Source: a virus (lineage: Duplodnaviria; Heunggongvirae; Uroviricota; Caudoviricetes). Taken from it: a stretch of DNA of 4,140 bases. Shown here piece after piece: positions 1 through 4,140 of the stretch. The stretch's first letter is position 1, and each line of letters starts with the position of its first letter. Under the pieces are notes generated by a model. The model was given only the letters and a program-made list of their open reading frames with translations, was not told the DNA's origin and did not search any database. The position numbers and the translations under genes were made by a program. The stretch lies in IMG/VR virus record IMGVR_UViG_2529292873_000018; one strand, written 5' to 3'.

Positions 1-1236
1 CTACGATAACCGCGCATTCAACATGGCTATCTGTTCGTCGTTCATGTCATCAATCCACATACCGTAAATTTCATACACCATCTGCGCAGTTTCATGCCCC
101 ATTTGGCTGGCTATAAATGCCGGGTTCGCTCCTGCCGTCAACAGCCAGCAGGCAAAAGTATGCCGCGTATGGTACGGATTACGACGGCGAATACCAGCAC
201 GTTTTACTGCTGCATTCCACCTTGCCCCCAAACTGCTTACCGAGTAATAAGGTTTTTGTTTTCCGTTACACACCCTGGGCATGAAAACAAAATGCAGTTT
301 TTGCTTTTCGGTTCTGCCGTACTCCCGATGGTAAAAGGTGATTTCGCTTTTGCGATGATGCCCGGTCAGTTTGTATTGCTCCTTCAGTGCTTCAAGAGCA
401 GGCTGCAGTAGTGTTACTGTCCGGATCCCGGCATTTGTTTTTGGGGGACCGAACATATCAAGTATCGTCAGGTTTCTTCTGACATTCACTATTCCCTTTT
501 CGAGATCCACATCCTCCCACGCCAGAGCTGCCAGTTCCCCGTGACGAAGTCCTGAGTAAACGGCAAATTTCCACAAGTTCTGGCTCTGTCCTTTTTCACT
601 TTCCATTAATGCATTGAATTCTGTTTTAGATAACGGATCAGGCTTTATTCTGTTTCGCTGTAATTTTTTTACTCCTTCAAATGGTTTGGTTGATATAAAT
701 CCCGACTGATACGCAAAACGCAACAGCGAACAGAGCAGGGCGATATAGTTATCAACTGTGCGCACGGTTCTTCCTTTTTTGTTGGATCTTGGATTATCCA
801 GGTAAAGCGTTTCTCCATGCAGCAGTTCATTCCGGTAGTTTAAGATATCGCTATAACGAATATGTGATATCGGGGTACTTTCACAAATTATTATTCTGAG
901 TGTTTTTAATTGTGATTTTGTTTTCTTCATTGTGTTTGTTGTTAACTCTGTCTCTTTAATTTTTGTCCAGATATCACAAAGCTCTCCGAACGTTTTTATG
1001 ACTCTCGTTGTCACCATTTTTGCCCCAGTGCTGGACTGGGGAAAACGTCTTAAATACTCAAATTCACCGGAGTTTATTTCATGAACTATCAGCGCTCTTA
1101 AATTTCCGGCCTTTTTAATATTACTGTTTGTAATCTCCCAGCCTTTTAATGTTTCCCGACATCGTTTTCCTCGAAACATGAACCAGATGCGAATGTATCT
1201 ACCTCTAATCTCGACACCTGTTGGTAATTTAGACAT
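1..1236 (-). CDS. intR: Prophage tyrosine-type site-specific integrase (411 aa, complete)
   Basis: Minus-strand ORF with ATG at 1234-1236 and TAG stop at 1-3. The translation (MSKLPTGVEIRGRYIRIWFMFRGKRCRETLKGW...) is recognised as the Rac prophage integrase IntR. C-terminal half carries tyrosine-recombinase hallmarks: R in LRHGELAALAWEDV, H-x-x-R in HTRHTFACWLL, and a terminal Tyr in MVYEIYGMW. AT-rich 5' third (about 860-1000) is typical of a horizontally acquired arm-binding domain. Identity is from memory, not a search. Confidence 0.9.
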   Translation of the reverse strand: MSKLPTGVEIRGRYIRIWFMFRGKRCRETLKGWEITNSNIKKAGNLRALIVHEINSGEFEYLRRFPQSSTGAKMVTTRVIKTFGELCDIWTKIKETELTTNTMKKTKSQLKTLRIIICESTPISHIRYSDILNYRNELLHGETLYLDNPRSNKKGRTVRTVDNYIALLCSLLRFAYQSGFISTKPFEGVKKLQRNRIKPDPLSKTEFNALMESEKGQSQNLWKFAVYSGLRHGELAALAWEDVDLEKGIVNVRRNLTILDMFGPPKTNAGIRTVTLLQPALEALKEQYKLTGHHRKSEITFYHREYGRTEKQKLHFVFMPRVCNGKQKPYYSVSSLGARWNAAVKRAGIRRRNPYHTRHTFACWLLTAGANPAFIASQMGHETAQMVYEIYGMWIDDMNDEQIAMLNARLS

Positions 1237-1237
1237 A

Positions 1238-1453
1238 TCATGAGTCTTTGATAAACTGATTTATCTTTGGATAGTTGTACCAGATAATCCCTCGTTTGCT
1301 GTCTGGCTTACCTAAAGGAGATACTCGTTTGAAGTGGAAGCCCTCCACCCAACAGTTCTGGCGGTATGCTTCAATTTGTCTGGCCCCCAGACCAGTGCGA
1401 AGCATCAGGCCGTATTCAACCATCCACTCTTCATTAAAGATTACTTGTGCCAT
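1238..1453 (-). CDS. ydaQ: Small excisionase-like / AlpA-type DNA-binding protein (71 aa)
   Basis: The ORF track starts at a TTG at 1475-1477 (79 aa). The first ATG is at 1451-1453 and is preceded by a Shine-Dalgarno GAGGTGA (minus strand, about 1458-1464), giving 71 aa ([35 protein letters not shown]...), the size I recall for Rac YdaQ/XisR. Its TGA stop (1238-1240) sits 1 nt upstream of the intR ATG, the classic xis-int arrangement. Confidence 0.8.
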
Positions 1454-1490
1454 CGCATCACCTCTGGCAGGCGCCAATGTTAGACTGAAA

Positions 1491-1518
1491 TTGACGCCCG
1501 ATGTTGATTATTAATAAT
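1491..1518 (+). promoter_or_regulatory. Candidate sigma70-like promoter firing rightward, antisense to ydaC/ralR (TTGACG -35, 16-bp spacer, AATAAT -10)
   Basis: Plus strand TTGACG at 1491-1496 and AATAAT at 1513-1518, in the ydaQ-ydaC intergenic region. A second good -10-like hexamer TACAAT lies at 1542-1547 without a convincing -35. By-eye motif match only; no experimental or computational scoring available. Confidence 0.2.
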
Positions 1519-1531
1519 CAGCTATGAAGTT

Positions 1532-1741
1532 TTAATTTGAATACAATGCAATTCTCGAGGACTGAAGTTTCTCGCAATTAAAATTTATCAGTTTTACTTT
1601 CTGCTCTCTGGAAACGCCTGCTTCTTTTTTACCTGAGAGCATTTTTTCGCATTCTGATTTCGTTAGTTTAGATTTTGAATATCTTGTCCAGTTAGTAGGA
1701 GTGCCACCTTCCTTTTCAATAGTGGCGGTAATTTTATACAT
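1532..1741 (-). CDS. ydaC: Small protein of unknown function, YdaC-like (69 aa)
   Basis: The ORF track gives 93 aa from an ATG at 1813, but that extension overlaps ralR out of frame for about 80 nt. The internal ATG at 1739-1741 is preceded by a strong SD GGAGGTG (minus strand, 1745-1751) and gives 69 aa (MYKITATIEKEGGTPTNWTRYSKSKLTKSECEKML...), matching the size I recall for Rac YdaC. TAA stop at 1532-1534. Confidence 0.75.
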   Translation of the reverse strand: MYKITATIEKEGGTPTNWTRYSKSKLTKSECEKMLSGKKEAGVSREQKVKLINFNCEKLQSSRIALYSN

Positions 1742-1750
1742 GAACACCTC
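1555..1750 (+). ncRNA. ralA: Possible location of the RalA antisense sRNA antitoxin (coordinates approximate, not resolvable from sequence alone)
   Basis: Established knowledge, from memory: RalA is a roughly 179-nt Hfq-dependent sRNA encoded opposite ralR with a 16-nt overlap with the ralR coding region. Placement antisense to ydaC, overlapping the ralR 3' end, is my best recollection, supported only weakly by plus-strand promoter-like hexamers at 1491-1518 and 1542-1547. No clear intrinsic terminator was found on the plus strand. Confidence 0.2.
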
Positions 1751-1928
1751 CATTATTATTTCCAGTGGTTCGTTTATTCCATCTTTCGAGTGCTTCTTTT
1801 TCACTTCCACCATAACCGGTTCGGGATTCGCATCCGTTACACTTCGCTCGGTAATATCCTGAAATGGCTTTCACCGTTACTGATGGACAACCACAAAATG
1901 GACATGGTTTAACATTGTCATATCTCAT
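1734..1928 (-). CDS. ralR: RalR/Lar-like small zinc-ribbon protein (restriction alleviation protein; reported DNase toxin of the RalR/RalA type I toxin-antitoxin pair), 64 aa
   Basis: Minus-strand frame with three in-frame ATGs (1965-1967, 1938-1940, 1926-1928). The 64-aa product from 1928 (MRYDNVKPCPFCGCPSVTVKAISGYYRAKCNGCESRTGYGGSEKEALERWNKRTTGNNNGGVHV) matches my recollection of RalR. It contains CPFC...CNGC, a C4 zinc-ribbon-like motif. No good SD precedes any of the three ATGs. Stop at 1734-1736; the last codons overlap the ydaC start and SD. Confidence 0.75.
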   Translation of the reverse strand: MRYDNVKPCPFCGCPSVTVKAISGYYRAKCNGCESRTGYGGSEKEALERWNKRTTGNNNGGVHV

Positions 1929-1957
1929 AATTTTTCTCATAAAAAATATTTCAAGTT

Positions 1958-1976
1958 GGCGGTGCATTACACCGCC
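1958..1976 (-). other. GC-rich stem-loop (7-bp perfect stem GGCGGTG / CACCGCC, 5-nt loop) in the recT-ralR intercistronic region
   Basis: Plus strand 1958-1964 ggcggtg, loop 1965-1969 catta, 1970-1976 caccgcc. On the sense (minus) strand it begins 8 nt after the recT stop and ends 29 nt before the ralR ATG at 1928. The loop contains an in-frame ATG (1965-1967). A U6 run follows only about 11 nt downstream, so it is not a canonical intrinsic terminator. Confidence 0.5.
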
Positions 1977-1984
1977 AGGCTGAA

Positions 1985-2795
1985 TTATTCCTCTGAATTA
2001 TCGATTACACTGTATTCCCCGGTTAATACAGAGGAATCTGCAGGATCGATTGTCAGTGGTTCCTTTTCATCCATTGATACTGCACGCTGGATCTCAATTG
2101 ATACGGGCAGATATTTGAACAGGCGACGAATAGCCGTTTTCTTTGCCATTTCTTCCCAGTGAGTTACCCACGGCCCGTTATTACCAGCTTTACTCAGGCT
2201 GCGCACCAGCTCAATCTGTTTGCGCGTCATAACTTCAAACTGAGTACCTCCGTCTTTCAGTCTTGCGACAGCATAGACGTGGGTAACCGGGGCATCTTCG
2301 TTTTCTCCCGGGCGGTGTATTAACTTTTCATCAAGGCCAAATTCGAAGCTAAACTCGTCACCTTCACGGACAACACGGGCTGACAGGCTGGCGATTTGAC
2401 CAGAACGGCGAGCCAGATCAATCATGCCGCGATAGCCAATGATTAGCTGAACGTTCTTTTTACCGCTCTTTTCGTTTTTATTACCAAAAGGCAGTAAATA
2501 TGCATGACCGAGGGCGCTACCTGGCTCAAGTCCGAGCTGTGAACACTGTACGATGGCACCGATAAAACTCGTCGAGTCACAGTTTCTTAGTTCCGGTACT
2601 TTACGGATTTCTGTTGTAGCAATGCGGATCATGCGTTCCGCTGTCATTGTGACGTGGCAGAGCTGCTGCCAGTTGCGCTTTCATTGCCGGGCTGTTAATC
2701 ACGCACAGCACATCCTTATCGTTAACTGCTGCTGGTGCACGGTTTCCCTGAGTTTTTTGCAGATCGGCTTTTGCGATAGGTGGTTGCTTAATCAT
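1985..2795 (-). pseudogene. recT: recT (RecT single-strand annealing protein) disrupted by a +1 frameshift at position 2648; N-terminal 49 codons (2649-2795) and C-terminal 220 codons (1985-2647) are in different frames
   Basis: ORF 2601-2852(-) contains [49 protein letters not shown] and then runs out of frame (NDSGTHDPHCYNRNP, stop at 2601-2603). ORF 1985-2647(-) begins MTAERMIRIATTEIRKVPELRNC... and runs to the RecT C-terminus ...GEYSVIDNSEE. The two frames differ by 1 nt (2852 mod 3 = 2, 2647 mod 3 = 1). Minus-strand sequence at the junction is CCA CGT CAC A ATG ACA GCG, so one extra A (plus-strand T at 2648) lies between the His-49 codon and the Met-50 codon. 49 + 220 = 269 aa, the length of intact RecT as I recall it. 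Start ATG at 2793-2795 with SD AAGGAG (plus coordinates 2804-2809), 8 nt spacing. Confidence 0.8.
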
Positions 2796-4140
2796 TTGCA
2801 TACTCCTTAGCCCAGCGGGGCAGTGATAACGTCTTAATAGCTGGCCATTCATCGGTATTTAGGCAGTCAGCCAGGGTCCGCAGATTGCGGTGATATTCCT
2901 GCTGGCCTGCCAGTTTTGCTTCTTCGCCCATCATGAAAATCTCAACCGGATAACGTCCGCATTCAACAGTTGTGCTGGCAACCAGAAAAACGAAAGTTGG
3001 CTGCACGCCAAACTGTGCTTCATAACCGTCACTGTAGAATGCATCCTGAACGTGATAGCGGTAGTCGTAATAAGCCGTTTTGAATCGTTGAATATCCGCT
3101 GTGGTTTTCACGTCCATGATCCAGTGAAATTCAGGAATAATTTTGTCCGGACGGCACCGACACAAAATTCCTGTTTCCGGATCTTCCCAGTAAATTGATG
3201 ATTCAGCGTGTCCGGCGCTTTCAACAAGCCATTGCCCCAGCGGCAAAGCCATAACGCTTTGATACATGAGTTCAATTTTCCGGCCTTCTTCCGCAGTGAT
3301 AACCGTTTTTCCTGTGCTTGCGCATTCCATCAGAAACGCTTTCTCTTCTTCTTTTCCGGCGTTTGTACGGCGGTTAAATTCAGGTGCTACGATAAAGCGG
3401 TTACTGAATTCTTCCGGTTCAAGTACCCGGCAGTGGAAAGCGGTTCCTAAATCGAGCGTTTTTGTCTTTGTAGTGTCCACGGGAGCATCTTTACGCCACA
3501 AATACAGTGCCGGAGTATCAGCAATGTCATCGAGCTGAGACTTACTGACACCGGGACCTGCGTGGTAATTCTCATTCGAAATTCCGTAATAAATACCTGG
3601 CTCTATGTCTTCTACGATTACGGGATCTGCGACTTCGCCAGTTTCATCACTGCAATCGCGATGCGGATCGCTGCCAGCATTCTCATTGTGCGGATGTTCA
3701 GCGCCTTCCATTTCCTCCGGATCTTTTTCCTGAACTTCAACCTGATACTCTTCATCGAATGTTTCTTGGTATGTTGCGTCGCCCATCACCGCGCCACAAT
3801 CAGGGCAGTTGCCGCCGCCGGTCTGACCGCAGGCGGTGCAGGCTTTTTCCACTTCCTGTTGCGCCACTGGTTCAGGCTGTTTCGTTTCTGGCTCGTTTTG
3901 TAACGCATTTGGACTGTTTTGTTCCGCTTTTTGGTAGTTCCGTTCCGATTCATGCTGGTTCTGGTTCACAGAATCGCGGGTCTGGATCCCCTTAATCCAT
4001 TTCGGATCATTCGGGTCACTAATCCCTTCAACAAATTCACCACGTGATGCAGCAAGCAACTTATCGGCGTCAGGCTGGCTGATATTGGCTGCCTGCATAA
4101 TTTTGTTTACTTCGTCAGCGGTAACTTTATCGGCTCTGGT
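2788..4140 (-). CDS. recE: recE (exonuclease VIII), 3' portion encoding the C-terminal 450 aa; 5' end lies beyond the right edge of the window
   Basis: Minus-strand frame is open from 4140 to the TAA stop at 2788-2790; the listed ORF start (M at 4096-4098) is internal. Translation ends ...[16 protein letters not shown], recognised as the RecE C-terminus. PD-(D/E)XK nuclease motif is intact: RPDK (D codon 3145-3147) and IMDVK (D codon 3112-3114, K codon 3106-3108), consistent with RecE active-site residues I recall as D748, D759 and K761 if the protein is 866 aa. Upstream is an acidic low-complexity region with a CxxC-x7-CxxC cluster (3796-3840). Confidence 0.9.

Follow-up and report, generated by a model that had tools for sequence, protein, structure and literature searches.

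The stretch of DNA analysed here (the window, 4,140 nt) comes from a Rac-type cryptic prophage of Escherichia coli and covers its integrase-proximal end. All genes lie on the minus strand and follow the order of the Rac recET module, intR-xisR-rcbA-ralR-recT-recE. The same order is annotated in the closest complete genomes, with ttcA adjoining the end of intR, whose stop codon forms the window edge. Four of the genes are intact open reading frames (ORFs) identical to those of E. coli 493/89 and annotated in relatives, i.e., intR (1-1236), xisR (1238-1453), rcbA/ydaC (1532-1741), and ralR (1734-1928). From the list of ORFs, recT (1985-2795) is interrupted, and recE, annotated as such in relatives, is represented by its 3' part (2788-4140; 450 codons and stop), the recE stop lying over the recT start in an 8-nt overlap. 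The window has no ambiguous bases, and recT and recE are the only genes that are not intact.

On the plus strand, an intact RalA sRNA was identified at 1557-1735 (Rfam RF02694, 225 bits), antisense to rcbA/ralR; RalA serves as antitoxin to RalR in a type I toxin-antitoxin pair. Moreover, an inverted repeat (GGCGGTG-CATTA-CACCGCC, 1948-1966) was noticed by eye in the spacer between recT and ralR, followed on the minus strand by an A/T-rich stretch with a T-run, which may be a terminator or processing hairpin.

Anatomy of the recT break

The native recT start is the ATG at 2795-2793, preceded by the Shine-Dalgarno (SD) motif AAGGAG (2803-2808, minus strand) at a spacing of 7 nt, with an anti-SD duplex energy of -8.6 kcal/mol. 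The 5' piece of the gene (2649-2795, minus strand; codons 1-49, MIKQPP...AALPRH) is identical to 493/89 recT and ends with the His49 codon CAC at 2651-2649, and the 3' piece (1985-2647, minus strand; codons 50-269 and stop) constitutes a 220-aa ORF beginning MTAERMIR at the wild-type Met50 ATG (2647-2645). Where the wild type has a single A (CAC-ATG), the window presents an AA dinucleotide (2647-2648, minus strand), so that the minus-strand junction reads GCA GCT CTG CCA CGT CAC A ATG ACA GCG GAA CGC ATG; the extra A is assigned to 2648, or equivalently to 2647, the two As being indistinguishable. Past the insertion, the frame of the native start reads NDSGTHDPHCYNRNP and then meets a premature TAA (2603-2601, minus strand), which ends translation after 15 out-of-frame codons and leaves a product of 64 aa.

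In the alignment with the closest relatives, the inserted base was the sole recT difference. The PF03837 RecT profile scored 190.9 bits (cutoff, 24) against the 220-aa piece and equally against the repaired 269-aa protein, and the match in the 220-aa piece spanned residues 4-195, which is the entire Pfam domain. With a +1 insertion after codon 49, no single uninterrupted ORF covers the N-terminal lobe (helix alphaA included) and the core. An earlier note on this DNA, made from the letters alone, had described a single-base insertion at the His49/Met50 boundary (CAC-A-ATG against CAC-ATG), 49- and 220-aa pieces in offset frames, and termination at 2601-2603 of translation from the start at 2793-2795 after 15 out-of-frame codons; sequence, alignment, ORFs, and translation agreed with this description in full. 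As the split follows deterministically from the letters, chance needs no consideration.

Distribution of the extra base and a second indel in recE

Positions 1-3718 of the window are those of E. coli O157:H- strain 493/89 except for the extra base, as 1-2646 and 2649-3718 are both present exactly in this strain. The recT gene was 100% identical to the WP_000595430.1 allele over 810 nt apart from one base, and 95% identical to the K-12/DH5alpha allele. Indeed, the Rac relatives share with the window the intR-xisR-rcbA-ralR-recT-recE synteny and the same 8-nt recE/recT overlap, whereas the extra A that splits the ORF between codons 49 and 50 is found in the window only. Over its full length, the window matched RefSeq complete E. 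coli genomes at 99.2% identity at best (megablast), and phage and plasmid collections at no more than 97% with partial coverage. The source record is thus not among the RefSeq complete E. coli genomes, which fits a lower-quality or excluded assembly but may have other reasons. By exact look-up, no sibling with the same RalR neighbourhood was found, and a protein search with the RecE fragment returned representatives of at most 97% identity, the contigs of which all carried an intact 269-aa recT.

Among 5,426 complete E. coli genomes, 1,749 matched the recT segment, the best being identical save for one gap (815 nt against 816). With a 71-nt query centred on the site, 121 complete genomes matched, all spanning 70 nt, and the extra base was present in none of the 121. 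A synonymous-tolerant pattern requiring the extra base (GCN YTN CCN CGN CAY A ATG ACN GCN GAR CGN ATG AT), which matches the window itself as positive control, gave no match in 185,579 GTDB species-representative genomes, 241 million JGI metagenome records, or 2.9 million IMG/VR viral contigs, while the wild-type junction pattern was matched by at least 120 IMG/VR contigs. Furthermore, none of 323 fetched loci had the extra-base junction. The 64-, 66-, 83-, and 220-aa products were missing from a collection of 15 billion proteins by exact look-up, an absence of little weight, as pseudogenes are often not entered as proteins. Among all sequences searched, then, the A inserted at 2648 occurs in this record alone; comparison with other recT copies had been suggested in the earlier note, and none of them shares the base.

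A second private single-base indel was detected in recE, 1.5 kb from the recT insertion, where a run of three As (4126-4128, minus strand) stands in place of four in relatives. The coding strand reads GAT AAA GTT in the window and ...TAAAAGT... in about 192 relatives; the exact A4 pattern occurred in 176 of the 323 loci, and the A3 form had no match in IMG/VR. When window positions 4040-4140 were compared with complete E. coli genomes, the best matches were one base longer than the query (102 nt against 101); at least 99% identity was reached by more than 1,400 genomes, and 100% by none. If the upstream part resembles that of relatives, the shorter run would shift recE so that its translation ends at a TAA (4109-4107, minus strand), as predicted from their upstream reading and the window sequence. 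Because the indel lies 12 nt from the window edge, with only these 12 nt of upstream sequence inside the window, it could not have been recognised in the earlier note.

In the pooled loci, the k-mers private to the window were confined to the two indels and one mosaic junction, with no private substitution, and all other stretches of the window occur exactly elsewhere. The private variants of these 4.1 kb are thus two changes, each of one base, in the length of A/T runs (A1 to A2 in recT, A4 to A3 in recE), the privacy of the recE change being judged against a pool of alleles whose closest middle-segment relative is 99.1% identical, rather than against a true sibling genome. Regarding the mosaic junction, from about 3719 the middle region of recE is an allele of the exonuclease genes of other lambdoid prophages (99.1% identity), and its k-mer is common in such prophages. 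The recombination junction was placed at ~3719-3731, with the Rac allele of 493/89 or 2013C-4974 on the left and the lambdoid exonuclease allele (99.1%) on the right. The k-mer across the junction is seen in the window alone, but the sequence on either side is present exactly in numerous loci, and the switch is therefore ordinary mosaicism. In addition, a 21-bp in-frame insertion/deletion relative to 493/89 (3912-3932) was observed in the variable acidic middle region of RecE.

Origin of the two indels

The recT split is most likely no biological feature. On the sequence comparison, we consider it likely that the extra A is an indel-type base-calling or assembly error, in which a run of one A was miscalled as two, and that the recE change is a second miscall, of four As as three. 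The two miscalls, being of the same type, would have a technical cause, and the source would carry an intact recT encoding the ordinary 269-aa RecT annealing protein. Spontaneous base substitutions exceed indels by about 10:1 in mutation-accumulation studies of E. coli, whereas the errors of flow-based and long-read sequencing are mostly homopolymer-length indels. Two indels with no substitution are therefore unlikely to arise by neutral mutation, and we infer a technical rather than a mutational cause; this is the pattern that errors in homopolymer length typically leave in flow-based or long-read data.

The earlier note had leaned away from an artefact, considering that the site is no long homopolymer. 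This is countered by what would be expected of an artefact and is observed here, i.e., a variant private to one record, accompanied by a further private run-length change, and by no private substitution; for these reasons an artefact now weighs more than it did. Nevertheless, the recT site (A1 to A2) is not a homopolymer and is a less typical error site than runs of A5-A9, selection on cryptic-prophage genes is relaxed, and about 6% of the sampled recT loci are frame-broken, so that real lesions are not rare. Of the three origins left open in the earlier note, a sequence error is now favoured over a real mutation, with an engineered lesion a very improbable third. The significance of the finding is mainly one of quality control, as the split recT should not be taken as loss of recombination, recoding, or an isoform before confirmation.

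A possible but rather unlikely alternative is that both indels are real and very recent private mutations, reflecting decay or inactivation of a silent recET in a cryptic prophage. Frame breaks of recT at various sites in about 8 of 129 sampled public loci offer precedents, although many of them sit in homopolymer runs and may be errors themselves. In the Rac prophage of K-12, recET is normally repressed, and given this repression its loss would be near neutral; moreover, the remaining window looks cleanly assembled, with no ambiguous bases and the other genes intact. However, two private indels with zero private substitutions in 4.1 kb are unlikely under neutral mutation, and neither indel was present in any other genome, contig, or locus searched. 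Were both real, RecT would be null, with the native start giving a 64-aa peptide, and RecE would probably be truncated too. A confirmed base would make this copy an ordinary private pseudogene of a well-known gene in a cryptic prophage, of local interest only, for users of the endogenous RecET of the strain.

That the lesion was engineered or deliberate, whether the strain was constructed or its record edited, is very hard to credit. The insertion is unique and falls exactly at a codon boundary beside an ATG, but the sequence shows neither scar nor restriction site nor cassette, and the allele belongs to a wild Rac variant, other than that of K-12, whose recE is a natural mosaic. The second lesion, at the window edge in a run of As, also gives the impression of an accident. 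There is a similarly slight chance that both indels are real and selected, with independent knock-outs of recE and recT favoured where the Rac exonuclease/annealase pair harms the host. One possible reason for such harm is a retron-type defence system sensing exonuclease/annealase proteins; in this context, the Rac exonuclease and the lambda gam-bet-exo operon have been listed among retron-interacting factors or escape loci (bioRxiv 10.1101/2022.08.27.505566).

The Met50 fragment, frame change, and other broken recT copies

If the base is real, a truncated RecT (residues 50-269) might be made from the Met50 ATG and keep its annealing function, which we regard as scarcely credible. The 220-aa ORF does contain the entire Pfam RecT domain, and in LiRecT, the RecT of the Listeria innocua A118 prophage (PDB 7UB2 and 7UBB) that serves as structural reference for the RecT/Redbeta family, it is the C-terminal lobe (residues 110-221) that holds the filament on ssDNA (PMC9772228). 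On the other hand, the anti-SD energy before Met50 was +0.8 kcal/mol, against -8.6 kcal/mol at the native start and a mean of -2.7 kcal/mol for the window background, consistent with the earlier observation that no SD precedes this codon. Additionally, translation in the upstream frame would stop only 42 nt past this ATG, which disfavours the usual termination-reinitiation coupling.

The fragment would also be without the conserved helix alphaA of the oligomerisation lobe. RecT aligned with LiRecT 7UB2 over residues 20-248 (E 3.4e-13; ~22% identity), and both proteins have the N-terminal three-helix bundle; in this alignment, in which chain numbering is offset by 3, RecT residues ~35-49 correspond to helix alphaA of the LiRecT bundle. 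Unlike that of LiRecT, the coding sequence in the window is interrupted in the alphaA-alphaB loop. In LiRecT, F41 and V44 of alphaA form the upper inter-subunit hydrophobic core (PMC9772228), and the N-terminal lobe clamps onto the annealed duplex (PMC9772228; PMC11611040). An AlphaFold2 model, made not of the window protein but of P0142, an 83%-identical E. coli RecT homologue with the same N-terminal numbering, presented the RecT/Redbeta/RAD52-like fold with an N-terminal helical lobe. In this model, residues 29-33 and 36-45 are helical and residues 46-51 form a loop (pLDDT there ~83; mean pLDDT 70, core 80-90), and the top PDB match was 7UB2 (E 9.6e-10, target TM 0.72).

The N-terminus is kept by all full-length relatives (266-289 aa), shorter entries being labelled partial. 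Among 26 orthologues, down to 61% identity, P36, K39, A43, A45, P47, and H49 were invariant and M50 nearly so, and H49-M50 were always contiguous. From the missing SD and the structural and sequence comparisons, the Met50 fragment would be poorly made and probably defective in filament consolidation. In literature searches, neither an experiment with N-terminally truncated E. coli RecT nor a description of the present lesion was found.

Programmed +1 ribosomal frameshifting or recoding that still gives full-length RecT, which has in its favour only that both pieces are well conserved, was rejected as having practically no likelihood: positions 2680-2601 (80 nt), the frame overlap and sole region where a frame change could give a near-normal protein, hold no X_XXY_YYZ heptamer, homopolymer of five or more, prfB-like CUU_UGA site, or other known +1 site, the insertion is private to this record, and, as the earlier note had supposed, no orthologue has a natural frame change here, H49-M50 being contiguous in one frame in every orthologue examined.

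Other frameshifted public recT copies (e.g., GCA_021582075.1, locus L006) likewise have a single-base indel in a Rac-like prophage, at codons 13, 113, 217/218, and 259 and nearly all in runs of A5-A9 or G4-G5, whereas the break in the window lies at codon 49/50 and outside a run. Independent frame breaks were seen in loci L006 (3171), L025, L045, L055, L099, L104, and L115, and could be real slippage mutations or sequencing errors. By type, an A6 run had become A7 at codon 13 and a G4 run G5 at codon 259; a lost G had produced an A7 run at codon 113 (L099, L104, and L115) or codon 218 (L055); and an A-run at codon 217 (L045) was lengthened and contained an additional A. In locus L014 (IMGVR_UViG_2698536437_000003), NN replaces five bases at recT codon ~168, a gap of the assembly rather than a mutation. 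Finally, a called protein of 318 aa (P0138), which matches RecT at 96% identity over 84% of the query, combines Exonuc_VIII (PF06630) and RecT (PF03837) domains. It resembles RecE and RecT called as one fused protein, which an indel in the 8-nt overlap of the two genes may have caused.
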